Made by a program: the position numbers and the translations under genes. Below the pieces are notes generated by a model, which was not told where the DNA came from, searched no databases, and saw only the letters and a list, made by a program, of their open reading frames with translations. From contig CM074515.1 of NCBI GenBank assembly GCA_037379345.1, positions 21,576,001-21,640,000 of the forward strand: a DNA stretch of 64,000 nucleotides, given 5' to 3'. Shown piece by piece: positions 9,997 through 60,031 of this stretch. Within the stretch, counting starts at the first letter, position 1, and each line of letters opens with the position of its first letter. This stretch comes from Perna viridis (Eukaryota).

Positions 9997-10905
9997 TTAT
10001 CTAGTGATGAATATTTTCTATGGAGTAATTAATTTTTCTAGAATTAATCCCCTGTCTTCCTTTCATCTTCTATCTTTTCTATTTTCCATTTTTCTTTAAC
10101 ATACTATCTAACAGTTTTACTGTCCTGTGTGGAACTTTGAACTTCTTTGAACCTCTAAACTGAAACTAAAAGTGTCAATAATATGATTTTGTTCAGCAAT
10201 TTTTTTTAGTAAAGCCATGCTTGTAACTGAGAATTGCAGAAGCTGGTACAAACAAAAAATTACTAGAGAAATTAAACAATAATCAAAGTCAAGCTTTGTT
10301 GCTTAAATTTCTGTTAATAAACATTGCTTTCACAGTAGAGGAGAAAATATGGCTCTTGTAAAGTTTTCCAATAAAACCTGATATTTAACAGGATGATCAT
10401 CTAATAGTCATTTAACATATATCATTATGATAGAATGTGTTTGACAGGTCAATACAATGCAAAAAATTGCATAGCATTTTAAGGTCAACAACATTCATCA
10501 GTGTAAATGTATACATTCAAAAAAAAAGTTTTACATTTTTTACAATGTCAACTCAAATGGTATGAACAGAGCTATTGTTACCAGTTAAAAGTTAATGGGA
10601 TAATTTGGTTTTAATAGCCATAACTTATGCCTGGGAGGTCAAAGGGATCTTGAAATTGAAAATAAAACATGTTTAAATAGATCCATGGGAAATTTGTGTC
10701 ACTAGGTTAGGTAGATTGGCTGTAATGTAAATATAGTTAGTGAATTGTACAAAGAGAGGTAACTCTAATATGACAATAGTGAATTCTCGTCTTCTAATAT
10801 TCTACTTATTATTTGGCATCTGCTCTTATGTATGATTTATGTATTATTTCTTTTTAATTTAATTGCAAAATGTACACCATTGAAAACATTTTCCTTTTTT
10901 TACAG

Positions 10906-13652
10906 ATCTTGATGTGAATCCTGAGTACATGAAGGTCATATCTGATGCTGCAGCCAATGTACAAAGGAGATCTTCTGGATCAGATAAACAGAGACATGGA
11001 TTTATGGATCGTTCTCCAAAAAGTTCATGTTCATCTCCCTCACATTCTTACATAAACAAGTCTCCAAATCAATCCTTCAGTAATCAGTCACCTCATAATT
11101 CATATTCCGATAAATCACCGAAGCATTCATTCACAGAGAAATCTCCAAAACATTCTTTTTATGAAAATGTGCCAAAAGTACATTCTCCGAAAACTTCTAT
11201 AGCTGATGGTACTGATGACACAGAATTTCTTAACAAAGTGTCAAAATTTGAACTCATTTCGCATAATAAAGCCACATCTCCAACTGTTAAATCACCAGTA
11301 AGAGTGATGCCCCCAGATACACCAAATAATGGATCTCTTGGGAACAATACTTTAAAGAGACAGAACAGCTCTTCAGGGGCATCACCACATACCGGTGAAA
11401 AGGTGTTTACTCGTGAGACTGTTACCACAAGAGTTCCTGCGAGTATTCTTTGTGGAAAATCTACCCCTGAACGTGTTCCAAGTACAGGTAGTACAAGTTC
11501 TAGCTCACTGACAAGTGTCAGTAGCAACAGTGGAGTGACACTGTCATGGAATTCAGACTCCCCCAAACCTACTCATATGAGTCCAAGTAGTAGCAAGGGA
11601 AATTCACCTAAATCTAAATCCCCACAGAACAGTATTGCTGTCACACCTAAATCAGTTAAAGAGAAGAAGCCCATTAACTTTACAGAATCTGCCACTTCTA
11701 AAGTGAGAATGGCAACCAATGCTGAACTTTTAGCAGAAAGTATTATTAATGGAGATTTCTTGGCTGGATGTGATAGTAGAAGTGAAAGTAATCGGAATAC
11801 TTTCGATGGAATGGATTTTAATTTCGATGAGTTGACTGCAAGCCAACAAGACTTATCAATAAAGCATAAGGAAATGGTCGCAGAAAGGAAAAAGGAACAA
11901 GAACAAGAGAAAATAGAAAAACAAAGATTGGAAGAAATTTTGAGTATGTGTGCTGAATATGAAAAACAAATAGCAGAGGAGAGTGTTTGTAAAGACTCTC
12001 ATAGTCCAAAACCTCATACTACTGCCTGGTCAATGCAAAAATTTCTTGATACCAACCATAAGGTTTCTGATGGACAAGGTGTTTCAGTGCCAGTAAAAGA
12101 CAGTTTTTCTTATTCAGGGGGTATACCAGCTTCAAATAATACAAATTTAAATACATATTCTCCTAGCTTCAGCCAGTCCAATGCTGTCTCCTATTCTACA
12201 TCGTATGGTTCAACAGAAAAGCAGATTGCTCCTGGACAAGTTCCTACAGATAGCAAAACTCAGTATTCAAAAACCGTTGAGAATGTGAATTCTCCTATGA
12301 TGAATGGACCATATTCACCTTGTGGTAATACTTCAGTTGCTCCTTCTAAAGGGACACCTCCTCCTGTGTCCCCAAAACCTGTAATGGTGAACAAAACTTT
12401 TGACTCTTCAGTGACTTCAACTAGTGGTGATATGGTGAGTTATCCTGTCACTATGTCAAAACAGTGGACCAATCAGCCGTCATCTTCTCTTAGTTATTCT
12501 GTCACCATGAACACAAGTGGGATACCTCCCGTGGGATGTAATTCTGGAAGTAATTCAGGTGAAATAGTCAGTACACAGAAATATTTTGCAGAAAATTCTA
12601 ATAAAAGACTATCTCTTCCTGATTATGAAAATAATATTCCATCAATTACCGACTCCACAAAACTTTCATCTGCTGTAGAGAATGTTTCAAATGCATTTTC
12701 TTCAATGGACTGCTATAGTGATGGTATTGCACAAAACAAGGGGAACAACTCTTCTATAAACAACACTCAGGTACTGCCAATGACCAACAGAATAAATGGC
12801 CCAGAAAATGTGGATTTAGGATCAGAATGTATGTCACCAAGATATGATGATAATTCATTCAAAGTTTCACAAGTTCAGAGACCCAATCAGCTACCTAGTT
12901 TTGTTGATTTTACGAAGGAGGTACATTCTCTAGACAGAAAAGAGAAATCCGAATACAGAGGCTCTATGACAAAAATAAAAACAAATGGTTCACTTACTAT
13001 GTTATCGTCCCCCAGTAATTCTCACAAGGATTTTCCGTTCAGTACACAAGTGAGGAGATGTAGTTCAAATTCCTCAAATTCAGAAGAGGAGTCGACGAGT
13101 GGCACTAACTCTGAAGATACTGGTACTATTAAACGTAGACCAGATATGAACCGTAACAAGGAAAATTCTTTGGGAGGTACATGTTCCCCACTACAAAGCC
13201 CCAAACTGTCACCTCGCATGGGGAGTAGAAGCCCTCAAGTCTCAAGACGAAATTTCAAAATTGATAATAAACCCAGAGACCCAGTACTTTCTCCTACAGA
13301 GACAATAAAAAGTGCTTTAAATTCACTGGATGAATTTATTCCAACACTAAATGGAGTTGCATTTAATGGACCAAGTGATCAAAATTCATTTAGTTCTGTT
13401 GAATTAAACCAGAGTAATGATTATCTAACCAATCAGACTCATGGGATTTATGAAAACCTTCAATGTCGAGTTGTTCCTAACGGCAGTGTGCCAACTGAGA
13501 AGGACCAAACAGTTTCAGGTTCCAGGTTGTCATCTGGATCCTTGGGTAGCAGGAAATCTGATGGGAGAATTACACCAGTCAATAATGAACCCATACTGTC
13601 TAAACCAAGGGAGAGAATTAGGTCTGATTCTTCTAACAGCAGTCAAAAGCGG
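10906..13652 (+). CDS. PHLDB: PHLDB1/2 (LL5)-like protein, large internal exon (2747 bp), Ser/Thr/Pro-rich with a short conserved coiled coil
   Basis: Lies in the 932-aa ORF. Acceptor ttccttttttacag|AT at 10905/10906 (phase 1); donor AAGCGG|gtaagt at 13652/13653 (phase 0). Encodes ERKKEQEQEKIEKQRLEEILSMCAEY, which resembles the LL5 motif ERLREQEMERLERQRLETILNLCAEY recalled from vertebrate PHLDB1. Confidence 0.9.
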
Positions 13653-15639
13653 GTAAGTTATACTAATTACTATCAAGTCAGAAATTATTGTGGTTCTTAC
13701 TATTGTTACTGACTTATTTTTGCAATGATAAAATTTTTTCACTCCATATGACAAAATTACAAAAGTACTGATTATATTGATAGTTAAGTCATGTGAAAAC
13801 ATTATTTGGTACATGTAAATTCTCAGTAATAAATTTGGAGAATTTCACACAGGAACTGTTGAAATTTTATAACCTGTCTTGAAAACTTGAACTGAAAAAG
13901 AAAACTACCATCAGAAAATGTAAGCTGTAAACAAAAAAAAAAAACCAGAGAATTGATTACCACTTAAAATATCCTAACCAAGTACCTTTATACTTGAGGT
14001 TTGGCCACTTGAATGTACATGAATTCACAAGTACATGTACATGCATAAGGTGAAGATTTAAGTTACACTAATTGTTTTTTCCTCAGGATTTTTTATTACT
14101 AATTTTGTACTATTTTTCATGGTTGCAATTTTCATTTTCTATTTTTAAAATTTTTGGAAAAAATTCAAGAACTTAAGAATTCTTTAAAAGATAATAGTTG
14201 TATTATGACAGTTTAAATACCAAGAAGGAGTGACTTGTATGGGTTTATGACATAATGTAAGACTGACTTCCGAAAACTATGACCCCGTTTGACATCAAAG
14301 GAAAAGCCCAATCAAATGAGAAACCGTGATAAAGTCATTATAATTGTGTAAAAACCTTGATCTTTTGTAAAAAGTTAGCGATCAGGTCATCCTTGTACAC
14401 CACTTTAATTTGTCTGGTGTATTTATTTATGTTTTTTAACAGGTTCAAGTTGCGTTGATCCGTCAACATATTTTACCTGTATGTACCTGTGTTAAATTAT
14501 TATCAAATTTGGTTTATCTTTTAATGGCCGATTCTCCTAAAGGATTACATCTTATTTATAACTTCTTGCCTTCATGGTAGGTATTTTACAAATGTTAAGA
14601 GAAGTCTTAAAATAATACATTAATATTTCTTACAAATGACAGCCTTTCCTTCATGAACTACTAGTAGTCATACCCAGTACAAACTGCTAGTTCCCTGAAA
14701 ATGCATGTATTTATATTAATTGACTTGTTTGAAATATTTTGATTTGTTTTGTTGACAGCTTGTAAACTCTTTTTCTTCTTTGAAGTGGGTTATAAGTTCA
14801 GTCATCTAGATTTCTATTTTGATTGACTTGTTTGGTAGGATGTCAAAGTTTGTCTTTAGTAAAGGTCCTTATTTTGTCATGATCCGATGTTGCTGACTGT
14901 CATGTTAGACTGTTGTTTGGAACATCATACTCTCTTACCTATTACTGTTCATTGGTTGATATGGGACATCCAAAATTAAGACTCACTATTACCAGACTTT
15001 CAATGAGTTCTGTCCTCTGCTGTGGTCTTAGTTGTCAGTTTAAATACTTCTACTGAATACTTCACTTTGTTACCCTTGTAGTACTTTATACAATTATATA
15101 AAGGATGCTCTAGACTTCAATGCTATAAGGGTTTTCCAAGTACTTTAGGTGGATCCAGGGATGGGGTTCAGGAATTCAGTGCCCCTTTATGTTCTAAAAA
15201 TTTGGTTCATTTTACAGAAAAAAAACCCCTAGAAATCACAGTAACAGGCCCCCCTTTTTGGATTCTCTGGAACCACCACTGAGTGCTAGCTTGTATCTAT
15301 TTATGTCCTACCTACACAACTTTTTGTCTATTAAATTCACGTCACATACATGCCTATCCTATTGAAACAAAATTAATATCAAGGTGCTAAAATGGTGCAT
15401 TCTTTGGAGCGTTTTTGGCATTTTAAGCAAAGTCAAAAAGACTCATATTTGATTTCAATAATAGCAGAAAAAAGACTTTGATATTCAAGTTAAACACTTT
15501 GGAGATTGACAACAATGTCAATAAACCAATACCTGGTAACATTTTGACTTTACTTTCAATAAGTCAGCATCCAATATGTTGCTGTCCAATCAATTTCTGT
15601 TTTGTGGGATTGCTGTACATACCGGATATATCTAATACA

Positions 15640-16900
15640 ACAATGCATGCCTTTAGATATTTGGACAATATTTTGGCTCTAAACAAAGATGACTTCAATA
15701 TTTATAATGAAGATATATATCCTGTAGAATTGTCTTTGAAAAAAAGGAATATTGATAAGAAAGAATTCCATTTCTTGATCATAGTATTCATATTGATAAT
15801 GGTAAACTTAATACATGTACTAAAATTTACAATAAAAGGGATGATTTTTCATTCCCAATTGTCAACTACATGTTTTAGATGGTGATGTCTCCTTGTCACC
15901 ATCATATGGTGTTTTCATATCACAATTGGTTTGATTTGCTCATATTTGTAACAGTGTTTTTGATTTTAACAAAATTAATCTTTATAGTACAGAGAAATTA
16001 TTACAACAAGCTCGTAAAAACATTCACAAAATTTTTAACTGATACAAGGAACTAATTCTCAAATACTAATGTACTTGTAAAGGATTAATGCATGCAGGTA
16101 TCTCTCACCCTTTGTTTTACAATCATATTCTACACAAAGCACAGAAAGTTTGATACTCACCCAATAAGTTAACTAAATTGTTGAATAGCCTCATTCATAA
16201 GGGATATTATTATGATATCATTGTCAAATCATTAAGGATAGCATTTTTGTTAATAGTGTTGATTCTGTCATAGGGTGTTTACACAGAAATTAAAACACTA
16301 TATTTAAAAGCAGTTTTTGGAATGACATGGGTTGTGTCCTTATTGTATGACTTATGATGTTCCATGGTTCTCAGCCCTACATGGGAAGAATTGGGATTGA
16401 TTTTACATATGATAGGGACATAACTATTTCTAGGGTTAAACTGGTCTGGAGCTGCTATGTCAGTTAACTGCTAGTAGTCGTTGGTTTGTACATTTGTGTA
16501 ATTTATTCTCAGTTTCTTTATTTCCCTTATAATAAGGGATTCATACCTTTTTAAACTGATTTTTTGAGGTGTGTTTAATTGTGTAAAATTTTTTCCACTG
16601 TGGCCAGATTTTAAAGAGGGAGAGTTGTGGTCACACCAAAGTATTTTACTGGTAACCCTGCCACATTTTTTGAGTCTGTCTCAAGTCAAACATTTCTGGC
16701 CTCTGCATGTCTTGTTTTGCAATTCATTCACTATACCTGTGTATAATGATACTTTGGGGTCAGCTGCAGCCTGCCCTGCTTGTGTGAGGGTTTCCTCATC
16801 ATCATTGAAGACCAATGGGTGGCCTTGGGATGCCATTCTCTTTGGTTTCCAATTTGTTTTGTTCTGACCCTGATGTTGCCATTTGTAGCATGGAGTTTAC
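15640..16900 (+). mobile_element. Decayed, 5'-truncated Penelope-like retroelement (Naiad-like): RT/thumb remnant plus 3' untranslated region
   Basis: Frameshifted peptides FRYLDNILALN..IYPVEL, KIYNKRDDFSFPIVNY, DGDVSLSPSYGVFISQLV*FA, KLLQQ, LVKTFTKF and GISHPLFY, ending HRN* at 16291-16293. No GIY-YIG motif is visible after the RT. Boundaries are approximate. Confidence 0.85.
16331..16424 (+). promoter_or_regulatory. SECIS-like (type II) RNA hairpin in the 3' UTR of the Penelope-like element, degenerate
   Basis: 19-bp helix 16331-16349 with 16406-16424, all Watson-Crick or G-U. Core ATGA (16354-16357) opposite TGA (16398-16400). Upper helix of about 11 bp; apical CCC/GGG ministem. The conserved AA is replaced by CAG. 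Confidence 0.6.
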
Positions 16901-17164
16901 TTTTGCCTATATTTTATCAATGCACAAGTATAATTGCTTGTGATGCCAAAGCAAGTTCCTGCATGCTTAATAACTTATGCAGCAATGGAGGGGTTTCTAA
17001 GACAGTAGTATTTTCGTTCTTTTCATGGCTGTATGAACTTTGTTTTACCCAAACACCTGATTCTGGATTTTCATTTAAAGATGATACTGGGTAAAATTGA
17101 AATTCGTGAAAAGTAATCAATATCCATGAAATTTTGACACACCATTCAGAGCTGCCTACTTGTA

Positions 17165-17858
17165 TTCTTAAAAATTGAAATGATAGTCACTGGTTTTCCA
17201 ACTGGCACACAGTATATGGGGAATAGAGTGATGAATGGTTGGCTTGGAGTCAGAATAACCTGTCCAAGTTGGATGACATACCTTACTGCAGACTGTTACT
17301 TCTGTTAGCTAGTATGATAAAGGTTCCACTAGTACTAGAATCTGTACAGGTGGTATCAGTCTTGTATTACATATTCCTGAGCGGGTGTATGTCTAAACAG
17401 GTTGGCTAAAAAATATAGTGCGCTTCCTTTTTGCCTTTTCCTGTTTTTGTTTCATTTTTCATCACAAGTACAGGGTAAATATTAATCTATGACACAAAAA
17501 ATTTGTTTTTGAGAAAAAACAGTATTTTCATGAAAAATAATGCTTCAGAAAAGGGGTCTATTTTATGAACTCAAAATAAAAGTGAAAGTAGAAAAGTCTA
17601 TTTTTAGTTTGACCTGTCCTGGTGTACCAAAATTTGTGCCTTTTTTTTCTAAAATGGACCTAAAAATTATTTTTGACATTTCCTTAATTGAAAAACATGG
17701 TCAAGAGTTAGATTAAAACTCCTTGCCTATTTTTTTAAAAATCATGAAAATTTAAGGTATACTATAGAAGCCTATGGGGCAAAGAATACTAGACTGAGAC
17801 CAGGTGGTTCAACAGTCATAAAATATCTGCCATAGGATGTTAGACAATAATTAATCAA
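17165..17858 (+). mobile_element. SINE copy interrupted by a MITE
   Basis: SINE body (tagtcactg..., tggttggcttggagtcagaataa, gctagtatgataaa) at 17165-17351. Tail (ctgccataggatgttagacaataattaatcaa) resumes after 17801. Confidence 0.6.
17352..17801. mobile_element. Non-autonomous DNA transposon with 17-bp TIRs, nested in a SINE
   Basis: Left end ggtatcagtcttgtatt versus reverse complement of right end ggtctcagtctagtatt (15/17); AGGT direct repeat on both sides. Confidence 0.65.
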
Positions 17859-19106
17859 GTAATAAAAGGGTTCCAAGTCTGAATCTACTCCACATTAAAA
17901 TTTACTGGTGAAATATTGACAAATGAACATAAACTAAATGTACTACAAAGTGGTAGGTGGTTTACAGGTTGTTTTGTCTTGAAGATTTGTTTTTATTGTT
18001 GTAGGAGTAAGATTTATGTCTCATATGAACATTTCAATCACTTCACATCTGTCTCTATCCAAAGAAAGACTTTGATCAATCAGCTGGTTGATTTATCAAT
18101 ACTTGTCACATTCAATCACTTTATGTTGCCCTGATAAAAAGGTACTTTGAATGCAACAAGGGGGCTGTAACATCCCTTCAATGCTGTGTTGTAATTTTTA
18201 GTACAAGGTAGCTAGTCTGATTCACCTTTCAAGTTTAATGACATTTGATTTCTAAAAGTGTAATATTCAGGGCCACAGAGTGACTGGTTTAGAGATTCCA
18301 CAATATAGATGTCACAGAAGAAAACTCCTCTAAAACAGAAAATTAAAAAAAAACTCCCTCCACCAACCCCTCCTCTATCCTATGCAAAAATGTACCTTGG
18401 TGTAAACATTTTCCACTGTATTAGCGACACATTTGCAGCAGTAACTGAGAACACTCCTCAAAAATAGGACATACATGTATCAAAATACACCCCCCTCTCT
18501 TCTGTTACAAAATGCCTTGGTTCATACAGATTCCATTGTACTGGTGTCACATTTACATCAGTAACTGAGAACAGTTCTCCTTTTAAACAGGAAATGTAAA
18601 AATACAAAGTACCCTGGACATTTTCAGCAGTTAAACAGGAAATATCTCATTACCATTTACGTTTACTTCTATAAGCAGTAAAATCTACTTGAGTACATAA
18701 ATATTTATCTTTCATAAATGGGAAGTCACATATACATGTTAAAACATCTCAAGAAAAACAGCTATAAAACTTGTAATATTCTCCAACTATTCATGAACTG
18801 TCATCTTCTCGTCAGGTTTTTAATGACTAAGTGACATTGATTTCTGTGTGTTATGGTCTGTGCCTATATGATGGGAGTTTTCAACATAGATTTAGTGTAA
18901 ATACTGTGAAAATGGGAAGAATGGGGAAAGTAGCTTTTACATTCACATCATGTTTCCTCCTGAAAACTGTAAGTTTTGTTTCATTAATTTTATCTTTCCT
19001 CTTAAAGTTTGAATTTGTTCTAGTTTATGATAAAGCATGAAAACATTATAAACAAACACTGATGGTGTTAGTGTAGGAAAACAGTAACCATCATCTCTAC
19101 ATAGTC

Positions 19107-19343
19107 ATTTGGACGTAGTTGTGACAATTGGCTAGAGTTGTGACATTTTGACACAGTTGTGTCAATTGGATAAGGTTGTGACATTTGGCCACCATTGTGA
19201 CATTTGACCATTATTGTGATATTTGACCAAAGTTTTGACAAGTTACCAAGGTTGTGACATGACATTTGGCAATGGTTGTGGCATTAGGCCTCAGTTGTGA
19301 CATTGTGATATTATTTTGCCACCATTGTGACATTTGACCATAG
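19107..19343. repeat. Degenerate minisatellite of about 20 bp (about 12 copies)
   Basis: Recurrent (g/a)ttgtgacattt(g)acca core. Confidence 0.85.
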
Positions 19344-19418
19344 CTTTTGTTTTCAATGATAACAGACCAAACTAAAATATAAAAATGTTTTGGAAAGTGC
19401 ATTAATGTACTTACTGAA

Positions 19419-19798
19419 GTAGTCATTTTAAGAATCATGCAAATTATGTAAAATGTGATACACCTAAAAAAGGCTACACATTTTTATTTTTGTTATTAAG
19501 TTGCTTTATAGGTCTATATGATGTAGTGTGTAATTATTCATTCCAATCTGTCTGCTCTAAGGAGATAATCCACACAGAAAATTCAATAGTTTCTAATGTA
19601 TTTTAGTGTCATTTACAAAGTTATCTCCTTTAATTTTGAAGTCTACAGAACATTCTATATAATTTTTATCACCTATGAACATAGATTATATGAAAAATCA
19701 CATGTTACTTTCTCTTTACTATGACATTTTAAACAAAATATCAAAAATAAAAATATGTAGGCTTTCCAACCTTGTATGCTTTTTATGTGGAGTGCTAC
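19419..19798 (+). mobile_element. TTAA-flanked MITE (about 380-400 bp family), copy 1
   Basis: GTAG...CTAC ends with subterminal AAGAATCATGCAAA; collinear with 21581-21980 and, reversed, with 30173-30550. Confidence 0.75.
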
Positions 19799-20069
19799 TT
19801 AACAGTCAACATAGTACTGCTAATAAAGGGATCTGTTTACTCAACCATACATACAAAATACATGTATTTAACTCATTATCGATCAACAAACATTACTCAT
19901 AGAATGTGATTATGGATATTTGTTATATTATTGTAAATAGGTATTAAGAACTTTTACATTTATATCATAGTAACCAAGCTCTGATTATAATTTGGGCCAT
20001 CTTTCTCATTTTAACTTAAATTGTAACATAAATTTGACCAGTGCTAAACACATCTTCCTTTATTTTCAG

Positions 20070-20195
20070 GATTCAAATAACAGTCAACAGTTGGACAAAT
20101 TGAAGCAGACAAAAGCAGAGCTAGTGAAGAATATAGCTTCTCTTAAACAACAGATTGTTGATATCGAAACTCAGGAAAATGAAGCTCTTAGAGAG
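20070..20195 (+). CDS. PHLDB: PHLDB-like coiled-coil exon (DSNNSQQLDKLKQ...ENEALRE)
   Basis: tattttcag|GAT ... GAG|gtttgt; 126 bp, phase 0/0; coiled-coil composition. Confidence 0.9.
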
Positions 20196-21580
20196 GTTTG
20201 TGAATTTATAGACAATAATAAAATCGATAGAAAGACAGGCTATTTTAACAAGATGGATTAATGGTATTTGTGTCTATTATATTACAGTTTATATAGATTT
20301 CTTCTGAGCCTTCAGGTTTTTAAATTATTGGTGGACTGAGGTCCAGGACATTCAATTTCTGACCAAGGACCATTGTAGTTTCTGGACTTTTAGCCCTTTT
20401 CATTGTCACCTTTTTGAGGACTTTTGGTTTTACTCAAGTGATCCTTTGATTTGAAACTTGCACAAGTCCAAGACTTTCCACCAGTGAAAGGAATTTTTAT
20501 CCTTGGTCCTTCTTTATGGGTTGGGCATATGTTTTTCTGCTGTCTCTATCTGGATCAATGTCTGTTTTGTGGGACTTTTGATCCCTTCATGTGAATAATT
20601 TGAAGTTTAGTATAGATCTCCAGCATTAAAGATTTAAATGTGTATTGGTTATATCTTGCTCACACATAAACCTCTTATTTACTGGAGTGGCTGCCTATGT
20701 TCATTGATGTCCAAATTGCATGTAGTTTTCCTATGATAATGGAGTCACACTCATTAACAGGACCGGCAATCCTGACCTGAACATAGATGAATATACATGA
20801 GTTGATGTTTTGGCTCTGAAGGGACAAAATTTTAATAAGATATTCTTTAGGATTTTCATAAAATGGTTTTTAATCTCCATGTTTTGTTTTAAGTCTGAAT
20901 GTCTTGATTTTTTTCTAGTCCCTGGCATATAATATACATGTACTGAAAATGTACTCTACACAATACATATTTATACATGTGTGCAAGTATAGAAAAGATA
21001 CACACATCAATAAGGAACATTTTTTTATACATTATGTGCATGTACTTCACTTTTATAAGTACAAACAAAATAGCTTGTTCAAAATAAAAGCATGGTTTTG
21101 AAATTGGAATATACTGGTACAATAAGTGTATGAAAATATTCTACTACTACACATCGAAATGTGCCACATATGGTGCTCAATTCATATGATAATCACATGG
21201 TAATCTTTTGATAATTTACTAATGATAGTCAAATGATGTGATTCCCAAATGCTATGGTAATTTTGGCAAGTAAATAAATGGTAATCATATGTTTGGGAAA
21301 AAACATATGATTATCTTATCACACTTGTTTCATATGATTTTCATATGTTGCAAACATATGATTCGTATTTGTAGAATTTTTGGCTGTGTATGCAAAAAAC
21401 CAGCATTACCAATGGTACAAACAATAGGGAATCCTACAACAAAACAGTATCAGGAATATTAAATTAAAAGTAGATTAAGACCAAGTCATACAATACAAAG
21501 AAACTAAAAGTACACACAGTAAAAAATAACAACAGAAATAATCAACAAATGGTAACTTTTGAATTTAACATAATGATTAA

Positions 21581-21980
21581 GTAGCTGTCTTTGTAAGAAT
21601 CATGCAAAATCTGAAAAAAAAATGTGATACACCCTAAAAAAGGCTGCATATTTTTATTTTTGTAATTAAGTTGTTTTATGGGTCAATATTATGAAATGTG
21701 TAATTATTCATTCAAATCTGCCTGCTCTTGGGAGATAATAAACAATGAAAATCCAGTAGATTCTATTGTATTTGAGCGTCATTTACAGAGTTATCTCCCT
21801 TAATTTTGAAATCTACAATGCATTCTATATAATTTTTATCTCCTAAGAACACAGATTATATGAAAAACTGAATGTTAATTTCTGTTTACTATGGCAATTC
21901 AGACAAAATATCAAAAATAAAAATATGTAGGCTTTTTACCCATGAATCACATTTTGCATGATTCTTAGCTGGAGTGCTAC
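21581..21980 (+). mobile_element. TTAA-flanked MITE, copy 2
   Basis: TTAA|GTAG..TAAGAATCATGCAAA ... TTTGCATGATTCTTA..CTAC|ATAA; ends about 60 bp before the exon at 22043. Confidence 0.75.
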
Positions 21981-22042
21981 ATAAGTAGATGAAAGTTTTC
22001 TGCAATGTAGTTGGTATAATATAAATGTTTGGGCTGTTGTAG

Positions 22043-57771: not shown

Positions 57772-57861
57772 ATTATAAGGCAGTCTCGAGTAAAGACCGA
57801 ACCGTTACAGCAAGTTGCAGCAGGTACCTGCTATTTATTATTAGAGGTGCATTAATTCTTA
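57772..57861 (+). promoter_or_regulatory. Candidate TATA-type core promoter and 5' UTR of the 57862 exon
   Basis: TATAAGG at 57774-57780, 88 bp before the ATG, followed by a local CpG cluster (tctcgag, accgaaccg) in otherwise CpG-poor DNA. Confidence 0.4.
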
Positions 57862-58937
57862 ATGCAAAGTTCTGCTAATTGGAAAATGGATTTGAGTGGA
57901 ATTTTCTCAGAGTATAGGAGAAAAAATGGGATTTCTCACCAGGTTGGAGATGTGGGAAAATCAGCTATGCCAGGATTTAGTAACCTGACTTATGGAAATA
58001 AGAGCAGTTTGTCACTGGACTCTCCAACACGGACTGAGAAATTACAGGTAACTTTCTCAACTCAAAGGGAAGAGCGAGTAAAGGATATTGAACGTGACTC
58101 TGGTATTGAAATTTTAAATAACAAAACAATTGATAGTGGGTCTAAAAATTCTGACAAGTTTTTGAATAGCTTAAGTAACAGTAACACTGTAGATGATGGT
58201 TTTGTTGATATATCTAGTCCAAACGATAGCGATTCAACATCATCTGTGGAATCCAAAATTTCCATTCAGAGTGTCAGAACACCAACTGACATGGCAATAG
58301 CAAGGATAGTGGACAGTAATGGTGGACAGGCCTCACCCTCGGTCAGAACACCACAGAAAAATGTTAGAATCAGTCTCTCTAGACCTGAAGTAATGCAGAA
58401 AACAAGTTCAGGGATAATGTCAAAACCAGGAACACCACAAAAATGCATTGCATCAAAACCAGGAACACCTCAGAGGTGTTCCACTGGTGTTTCTCCTCAG
58501 CATAGTACATCACAAAAAGCAAGCTGTTTGAAAAAGATAGCTGTGAATTCTCCATGTACAAGTAGGGAGCTAGACTTAGTTATGAATCATCATCGAACAA
58601 GTCGGGAGCAGGACAGAGTAGCTTGTTTACATAAGAGAACCATGTCTGCAGACAGATTTGCAAATCACAGCTTGAGCGATTCAAGGAGTAACCTAGGACC
58701 ACCTTTGAATATAAAACACTATAAGAAACAACAGGAGTCTCTTTTCGCAGAGAATAGGAATTATGATCAGTTGTTCCAGAATTTATCACTACGCAGTGAA
58801 ATGAAAAGTCGCCAGGAATTTAACAGTAAGAGTGATATAGATGATATGGAATTATTACCCTCATATTTTAATTCTCAAGGATTTCAACTGGATTATTGTT
58901 GGTTCTGTGGAAGACCTATGAATCTGAATAGTTCAAG
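57862..58937 (+). CDS. Probable alternative first coding exon of the PHLDB-like gene (or first exon of a nested gene); about 358 aa, Ser-rich, with a C-terminal CWFC motif
   Basis: 359-codon ORF with higher GC than its flanks. In-frame stop at 57853 just upstream of the ATG. The ORF stop (58939-58941) lies inside a strong donor, TCAAG|gtaagg, of phase 2, the same phase as the donor at 36904. Confidence 0.7.
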
Positions 58938-60031
58938 GTAAGGGCATCAGGGATATTTCTCTGTTAAGAAGGAATTTTCTACTGTTAGTAAATAGTCCAG
59001 TTTTGGGGTAGACTTATATTTTTTCGTGGTCTTCTGATTGTTTGTGTGTGTGTGTTTTTCTTTTGTTTTGATCTATAAAACACATTTTAAGACTCTTGTG
59101 AAGGTACATTGCTGTATGTTAACAACAATGCCACCAAGCTAATGTACTATGTAAGATTCACTGACTTCGTGTATTGTGTAACTTCAGTCAATTGTAGTCT
59201 TTTTTTTTTCTTGTTTGTCTACTGATGCTGAAGAAGAGGATATTTTGTGTCCAATTTATGGTACTATGAGTATAATTAACTAAGGAAAATAACGAGAAGA
59301 CACATAAAAAACACCTTTGTTGTAAAATAATCTGATCTTTGTATAGCTTCATTCCAAGAGTCAATTGAACTTAACACTCCCGGTGAATTATTTGTCTGAT
59401 CTTTGGTTTATAGCTGCTAGCCAATCATAAATGAATTGTCTAGTTACAGCAGTATTGCTGCGAAACTAAAACCCCTCAAGACCTTTCGTCCATTTTAGTC
59501 TTCTAATTAAATTTAATTTTCTTGGCTTCTTTCCTGTTTTTGGCTGTGCTAAGATGAAAATTTAAATGTCATTACCAGCAATGAAATTTTATCAATAATT
59601 GACATTATACAGCAGATAACAGGAGTATATATTTCTTTTTTTCCTGTTATACAAAGTTTCCAAATTAAAGAGATTTTAATTGAATTGATTTGTCTTATAG
59701 TGCTTATCATTAGACTTCAATTTTCTGTGATTTTTGTCCTTTTTTTCCCTGAATGCAGATTTTTAAACATATTTCTTATTGGATAAAATTGCAGTTATTC
59801 TAAATCATGCTCCAAGGTATACCCTATGTATCAGTACCAGTGATCCTTATATTTACCTTCAGTATCTATATCAAGGCCTGCATTGTTCTTCAGGTTTCAC
59901 CTTAATCAATATGAAGGCTTTAAGTGCTTCTAATTTTCCTTAGGTATCAATTTCTTGGCCAGAAATACTCTTCAGATTTAACCTTAAATATTAATATCAA
60001 TATCTGTCTCTCAGATTTACCCTAAGTATAA

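Follow-up and report, generated by a model that had tools for sequence, protein, structure and literature searches.

Penelope-like elements (PLEs) of the Naiad clade that encode selenocysteine (Sec) were described by Craig et al. in 2021 (PMC8557442), and four of them were named: Naiad_Scon and Naiad_Mmer from clams, and Naiad_Sdum and Naiad_Smim from spiders. In the portions of that paper drawn on here, the published Sec Naiads have three or four in-frame UGA codons and a type I SECIS element located 1–21 bp behind the stop codon, and the donation of SECIS elements to host genes is proposed but not shown. In the same portions, neither UGA codons nor a SECIS are reported for Naiad_CGi, Naiad_Mgal, Naiad_Mcor and Naiad_Tgra. 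A search of the literature on Sec-encoding transposons found no paper beyond PMC8557442. The locus analyzed here lies in a 64,000-nt stretch of the Perna viridis genome (contig CM074515.1, positions 21,576,001 to 21,640,000), which is called the window below and to which all unlabelled coordinates refer. As selenoprotein Naiads were already published in 2021, the family found at this locus is a further member of that kind; new here are a Sec-x-Sec linker motif and subfamilies distinguished by Cys or Sec at two sites.

The Element Copy and Its Host Intron

A decayed, 5′-truncated Naiad-type PLE was located at 15650..16840 on the plus strand, and it was the sole copy of its family in the window. 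It showed 84% identity to the family majority sequence and represented the last third of a unit of ∼3.7 kb. The original prediction had placed a reverse transcriptase (RT) ORF ahead of the hairpin described below; no intact ORF was found there, and the segment 15650..16293 (+) was instead a remnant of the C-terminal part of the RT, which starts just before the mutated catalytic motif, is frameshifted several times and runs through the family stop codon TAA at 16291–16293. An ORF of 152 aa (15427–15882) consisted mostly of flanking DNA plus ∼40 RT codons, and neither this ORF nor the large upstream exon of the host gene gave a Pfam match. Behind the hairpin, the rest of the element 3′ UTR (16425..16840, +) carried a 45-nt deletion and stopped ∼55 nt short of the family end. 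No hammerhead ribozyme was detected with Rfam in window positions 10000–22000 or in 20 relatives.

As shown by RNA reads from three runs, which joined 13652 to 20070 on the plus strand, the element was contained within a GT..AG intron of 6,417 nt (13653..20069, +) that was spliced out in all three runs. The RNA depth was <1 over the element versus 10–22 over the upstream exon. This large exon (10884..13652, +) contained a low-complexity reading frame, and 10884 is not a mapped exon boundary. The downstream host exons encoded coiled-coil-like stretches, and an exon encoding a PH domain (Pfam PH, E 9e-20) was found 12 kb past the window end, so that the host gene with the coiled-coil exons likely carries a terminal PH domain and is PHLDB-like. 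The element had been predicted to lie in sense orientation within the PHLDB pre-mRNA; its sense orientation and intronic position were borne out by the spliced reads, whereas PHLDB is a putative name, drawn from the coiled-coil exons and the downstream PH exon and not from a named match.

Several further features of the host region were observed. An alternative exon at ∼18600–18968, within the large intron, was joined to 20070 in all three RNA runs and, as a first exon, likely opens a short host isoform that lacks the large exon. A low-complexity frame of 361 codons at 57856–58938 (+) is possibly a further large exon of the host gene. Intronic repeats at 17300–17900, 19220–19860 and 21470–22000 attracted RNA reads from both strands.

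The Hairpin Behind the Reverse Transcriptase Stop

Folding of 16331..16424 (+) gave −36.3 kcal/mol with a z of −5.51, and none of 200 shuffles was equally stable, whereas the minus strand of the same segment gave a z of −1.64; the presence of a 3′-UTR hairpin at this position was thereby confirmed. The hairpin started at the 38th base behind the TAA, which agreed with the predicted spacing of 38 bp, and the distance from the TAA to the AUGA was 61 nt. Its basal helix paired 16331–16349 with 16406–16424, and according to the pair list the 19 pairs comprised 15 Watson–Crick and 4 G-U pairs, just as a 19-bp helix whose non-Watson–Crick pairs are all G-U had been predicted.

The SECIS proper occupied 16354..16400 (+), with AUGA at 16354–16357, an apical AG at 16373–16374 and GA at 16399–16400. 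Helix II was formed by 16359–16370 and 16388–16397, which gave 10 pairs and a 2-nt bulge (16364–16365). At the apex, the loop bases UCAG, with CAG at 16372–16374, were followed by a CCC/GGG ministem of three pairs (16375–16377 with 16383–16385). All parts of the predicted architecture, namely the AUGA/GA core, the upper stem and the CCC/GGG ministem, were therefore recovered, as was the mutation of the apical AA to CAG. The core of the window copy (AUGA-U and U-GA-U) fitted the type II pattern UGAN/KGAW; the unpaired apical adenines of type II were lost in the window copy (AG), but the family kept them in 55 of 65 distinct copies.

The window copy gave no match to Rfam SECIS_1 at E ≤ 5 when positions 10000–22000 were scanned, and a simple pattern scan detected the majority hairpin but not the window copy. 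With a SECIS model built from relatives only, the segment 16342–16412 (+) was the top match in the 64-kb window (22.9 bits, E 0.012), and the next match reached 15.0. Because the apical A was lost and the intron is spliced out, the window copy is likely a SECIS relic without function.

The Family in the Perna viridis Genome

When the genome was searched at the DNA level with 16280–16620, 2,962 candidates were obtained, and further copies among the best 40, which were scored, were 83–87% identical. The number of candidates dropped from 2,962 at the 3′ end via 390 and 155 to 75 at the 5′ end, which is the 5′-truncation gradient described for Naiads in the portions of PMC8557442 drawn on here. 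A majority sequence built from 150 loci (134 distinct places) was 3,687 nt long and contained a single frame of ∼984 codons arranged as endonuclease, linker and RT, within which a zinc-finger-like Cys cluster, a GIY-YIG-type motif, a KR-rich block, a CxC linker, a DKA motif, the RT and the TAA followed one another. One frameshift was retained in a T run whose length had no clear majority. All family copies seen were ∼10% decayed, and no young or intact copy of the Sec family was found among the scored candidates (best 40–150 of up to 24,875).

Across copies, identity to the majority was 90% in the hairpin, 89% in the RT and 90% in the downstream UTR. No selective conservation of the hairpin relative to its flanks was observed, and the same held for the 16 best-kept copies. 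The family had been predicted to spread SECIS hairpins through the genome; this was found to be true in a passive sense only, as the copies seen are ∼10% decayed and their hairpin has changed as much as the sequence around it. In 65 distinct copies, the AUGA was kept in 48, the apical AA in 55, the GA in 52 and all three in 35, and the top half of the SECIS was exactly kept at 16 places. RNA reads from many diverged copies mapped to the SECIS region on either strand (about 25–39 sense and 13–75 antisense); as expected, these family-wide reads represent passive transcription, with no host gene assigned.

In-Frame UGA Codons at Cysteine Positions

The only in-frame stops of the ∼984-codon majority frame were TGA codons. 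Among distinct copies, TGA was found at the zinc-finger Cys site in 11/20, at the first CCHH Cys site in 14/23, at the Cys that precedes the GIY-YIG motif in 11/25, at the first linker Cys in 34/44, at the second linker Cys in 22/43 (with TGC in 11) and at the site eight residues behind DKA in 20/49 (with TGT in 20). At the 21 other Cys codons, TGA was observed in 14 of 916 cases and in at most 7% at any one codon. Ordinary codons keep their state in ∼65–75% of copies, and a TGA share of 44–77% therefore fits an ancestral TGA. Relatives had Cys or TGA at all six sites, so that the conserved in-frame TGA aligned to Cys that a selenoprotein-encoding retrotransposon had led us to look for was present in the family and at the same sites in its relatives.

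CpG decay was also considered as a source of TGA and was rejected: CGA codons gave TGA (45) about as often as CAA (48) among 409, and CAA was seen 0 times at the six sites.

A metagenome scan with the relative P0003 yielded 58 loci, of which 27 had TGA at one or more of the sites, 19 covered a site without TGA and 12 covered none; in L121 and L149, both counted among the 19, the first linker Cys position does read TGA. L122 was open over 1003 codons if five TGA were read through, and L133 over 1079 codons if six were read through. Two of the relatives carried extra TGA codons, L130 (2–1156) at a Cys position just behind the GPKY motif and L133 in the N-terminal part of the RT, where L131 has Cys; the Sec sites therefore vary widely in the clade.

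Two tRNA-Sec genes of equal score (L229 and L230) were found over the Rfam cut-off on contig C8, 4.7 Mb apart. A separate array (L231; C6:43,388,200–43,414,600) contained ∼50 tandem units of ∼520 bp, each with a tRNA-like match just under the tRNA-Sec cut-off (45.9 bits), and is a putative tRNA gene array.

SECIS Elements of the Relatives

With Rfam SECIS_1, 7 of 20 relatives matched just behind the RT stop. The match of L132 (38.8 bits) was the one above the gathering score, and that of L121 lay at the place homologous to the window hairpin. The relatives-only SECIS model was constructed from 16 hairpins of metagenome relatives, none of them from the Perna viridis genome. In this alignment, whose rows and structure were chosen by hand so that pair counts lean toward the model, 84.8% of cells were paired versus 37–47% for slid partners, and 17 of the 19 pairs changed on both sides across the 16 relatives. 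Helix II covaried across relatives, and the ministem did so weakly (69.6% paired).

When the model was applied to 29 of the 30 sister loci from the DNA search of the genome, the 14 best matches all corresponded to the hairpin on the element sense strand; 12 of the 29 loci reached E < 0.1 and 17 fell short of it. Among 25 further relatives, nine had a 3′-UTR match at E < 0.05, five being near-duplicates of training rows. No match at E < 1 was obtained for the Cys-only elements L153, L154 (21 nt of UTR only), L155, L157 and L161, and none was obtained behind the stop of the younger Cys-only Naiad family of the genome. L124 has TGA behind DKA, yet its 211 nt of UTR gave no model match. A pattern scan matched the UTRs of 13/32 relatives, including that of one Cys-only element (L153), and 7 of 252 background windows. 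In the SECIS of an intact relative (L137:4340–4425), a 20-nt insertion was observed in helix II.

The family majority contained all three parts of the AUGA/AA/GA core that had been expected in a consensus. Its AUGA-to-AA spacing was 15 nt, compared with 11–13 nt in the relatives, because of the 2-nt bulge and the presence of CAA for AAA, and its helix II had an A-G mismatch. As stated in the part of PMC3753652 used here, the grade assigned by SECISearch3 is lowered by bending and insertions, and the bulge and spacing of the family SECIS may reduce this grade, where an A is expected of Sec Naiads. Genome-wide, SECIS_1 gave two matches among the 129 scored of 20,424 candidates, neither of them in the family. 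These two, L248 (32.8 bits) and L249 (29.6 bits), are candidate 3′ UTRs of host selenoproteins.

Placement in the Naiad Clade

The family frame, with its endonuclease region first, ended behind the RT, which upheld the reported lack of a C-terminal endonuclease. It aligned with L161 over residues 7–917 (E 3e-102), and in L161 Pfam GIY-YIG was found over the cut-off in the N-terminal part (121–212), RVT_1 being weak. Among 32 relatives, GIY-YIG was detected by Pfam in 6 and RVT_1 in 9; L122 itself had no Pfam match. The CxC linker was present and was read as Sec-x-Sec or Sec-x-Cys, and the DKG motif was DKA in the family frame. Naiads are further recognized by an RT3(A)–RT4(B) distance about 20 aa longer than that of canonical PLEs; this distance was 85 residues in the family. 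With the predicted structure of L122 (mean pLDDT 80.5), telomerase RTs occupied ranks 1–16 (E 1e-9 to 6e-6), and no match was obtained when PDB sequences were searched with the alignment of 32 rows.

In a quick tree of 42 rows, restricted to unnamed relatives and with 16 rows dropped as near-duplicates or for their length, the family was placed in a 12-row subclade inside a 34-row clade (SH-aLRT 99) that also held the clam-type L132; the Cys-only younger family of the same genome fell outside this clade. Published Naiad sequences were compared by eye. The N-terminal GIY-YIG region, the CxC linker, the DKA motif and the grouping with clam-type Sec Naiads are in accordance with the proposed assignment to the Naiad clade.

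The younger family (L225:2109–4298 (−), L226:2104–4239 and L227) had open frames of up to 730 codons with no UGA, carried Cys both in the linker and downstream of DKA, and was of the oyster/mussel type. It shares the genome with the Sec family, and the protein identity of the two is ∼39%. At L224 (C3, ∼46,030,000–46,080,000), at least 15 tandem, near-identical units of ∼3,409 bp of this Cys-only family were found; the units read at L224 share the same frameshifts, and the array was therefore amplified after the element broke.

Subfamilies and Probable Cys/Sec Switching

When 33 copies were classified by their codons at two sites, the second linker Cys followed by the position behind DKA, 7 were Cys/Sec, 10 were Sec/Sec, 16 were Sec/Cys and 0 were Cys/Cys. 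The Cys/Sec group showed a divergence of 0.119 versus 0.097 and 0.087 in the other groups (P 0.006), and it shared the outgroup base at 4 of 7 linked sites, with one site opposite. In a tree calculated without the Sec codons, eight copies of the Cys/Sec type were set apart (94/97), and the rest of the tree was star-like, with 2 of 33 inner branches starred. No TGA was found at the second linker Cys in any of the 32 relatives covering it. Because the Cys/Sec group is the most diverged and TGA is absent from these relatives, a gain of Sec from Cys at the second linker position during amplification is probable, as judged from the aligned copies.

A later loss of Sec to Cys behind DKA would be the simplest order of events, but the case for it is weaker than that for the gain, since the Sec/Sec and Sec/Cys groups differ at the DKA-site codon only and show no difference in age (P 0.12), and since Cys stands behind DKA in L121 and P0001–P0003, the closest sister elements. 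The oldest subfamily would have had a Sec-x-Cys linker together with Sec behind DKA, a later one would have gained Sec-x-Sec, and the largest carries Cys behind DKA.

Discussion

The hairpin has a SECIS structure and lies behind an RT stop, the family carries TGA at Cys codons, intact relatives have the same arrangement, and the window copy is intronic. It is very probable that this is a SECIS in a dead Naiad-type copy whose ancestors are likely to have read five or six UGA codons as Sec, the intronic copy itself being likely functionless. The identity of the family as a selenoprotein Naiad is supported, and Sec insertion is predicted from sequence.

In eukaryotic Sec decoding, SBP2 binds the SECIS core and thereby delivers eEFSec together with Sec-tRNA. 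By the same route, the element RNA would have recruited the host Sec machinery, and ribosomes would have passed three UGA codons while translating the endonuclease region, then one or two at the CxC linker; some subfamilies would have had one more behind DKA. As all of these UGA codons lie upstream of the RT core, no RT would have been produced without recoding, and the element would have needed the selenium supply of its host in order to move. Since reverse transcription would proceed from the 3′ end, truncated insertions mostly carry the SECIS and few carry the UGA codons.

It is possible, although unlikely, that the family encoded Sec with a SECIS already weakened by the bulge and the CAA, with the result that UGA was recoded inefficiently or decoded in part as Cys, and this may have aided its extinction. 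The 15-nt spacing and the helix II defects of the majority are in keeping with such a weakening, as are the Cys behind DKA in the largest subfamily and the ∼10% decay of all copies seen. However, the hairpin is carried by hundreds to thousands of copies (2,962 candidates), helix II retains its 10-pair register, and a further UGA was likely gained, which a failing SECIS would hardly permit.

That at least one sense copy of the family in a host 3′ UTR drives Sec insertion into a host protein, as a transposon-donated SECIS, seems very doubtful. RNA reads in both orientations, the full core in 35/65 copies and the exactly kept top half at 16 places would allow for it; among the family SECIS copies no sign of host use was seen, and the window copy is excluded from this reading because it is intronic.

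The TGA codons might also be true stops in a non-autonomous family that was moved in trans, with the hairpin serving as an RT-recognition or RNA-stability structure. No intact family copy was found among the scored candidates, the family SECIS is off-canon, its 19-bp basal helix exceeds what a SECIS needs, and the same genome holds a younger Naiad family whose frames are open over long stretches. That younger family, however, is just ∼39% identical in protein, the stops are confined to Cys-homologous codons within a frame of ∼984 codons, intact relatives have TGA at the same sites, and hairpins of the SECIS type go with the TGA-bearing clade and are lacking in Cys-only elements, all of which renders true stops highly improbable.

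Although the window copy lies in sense orientation in a host transcription unit with all 19 basal pairs intact, the idea that the host gene has adopted it as a functional SECIS or a regulatory hairpin can be dismissed as extremely improbable, given the lost apical A, the splicing out of the intron (depth <1 versus 10–22 on the upstream exon) and a hairpin identity (90%) equal to that of the RT (89%) and the downstream UTR (90%).

With the window copy read as the remnant of a Sec-encoding Naiad, the Perna viridis family and 27 of the 58 metagenome relatives indicate that Sec use is widespread within a single large Naiad clade. Gene callers cut such ORFs at UGA, and P0001 and P0003 accordingly begin just behind the linker. 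As dated fossils, the copies offer a rare view of a single-codon change from Cys to Sec once a SECIS is present. For the window copy, no activity was detected; the bulged SECIS variant suits a standard reporter.

Comparison with Known Systems

The following comparisons refer to the portions of PMC8557442 and PMC3753652 drawn on here. The Perna viridis family resembles the clam and spider Sec Naiads in its N-terminal GIY-YIG region, CxC linker, DKA motif and C-terminal RT, as well as in its ∼3.7-kb unit, its 5′-truncated copies and a SECIS closely behind the stop. The family stop is TAA, in line with the UAA or UAG expected ahead of the SECIS in Sec Naiads. By eye, its endonuclease region resembles that of Naiad_Scon and Naiad_Mmer, and the stop region of L132, which belongs to the large clade of the family, resembles that of Naiad_Mmer; compared with clam-type elements, the family forms a separate 12-row subclade. 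The domain order and motifs are also common to the Cys-only Naiad_CGi, Naiad_Mgal, Naiad_Mcor and Naiad_Tgra (PMC8557442), and the younger family of the genome (L224–L227) resembles Cys-only bivalve Naiads by eye.

Four of the six UGA sites match published ones, namely the Cys before GIY-YIG, the first CCHH Cys, the zinc-finger Cys and the site eight residues behind DKA, whereas the two linker sites of the Perna viridis family are absent from the published list. In the linker, UGA is found at the first Cys and, in younger subfamilies, at the second Cys too. The number of UGA codons is thus five or six in this family versus three or four in the published Sec Naiads. A comparison of five 3′-UTR motifs with the part of the PMC8557442 supplement used here gave no match to a published consensus and one match at an unrelated place. 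Unlike the published type I elements, the family hairpin has an apical ministem, 61 nt between the stop and the AUGA, a 2-nt bulge and a 19-bp basal helix.

With type II SECIS elements (Rfam RF00031; PMC3753652), the family shares the UGAN/KGAW core, a 10-pair helix II, a third helix and the position in the 3′ UTR; the unpaired apical adenines are likewise present in the family majority, and the window copy has lost one of them. The family SECIS differs from these elements in its 15-nt spacing and in belonging to a mobile element of which many decayed copies exist. Compared with the published Sec Naiads, the Perna viridis family is extinct here and is polymorphic for Cys and Sec among its subfamilies.
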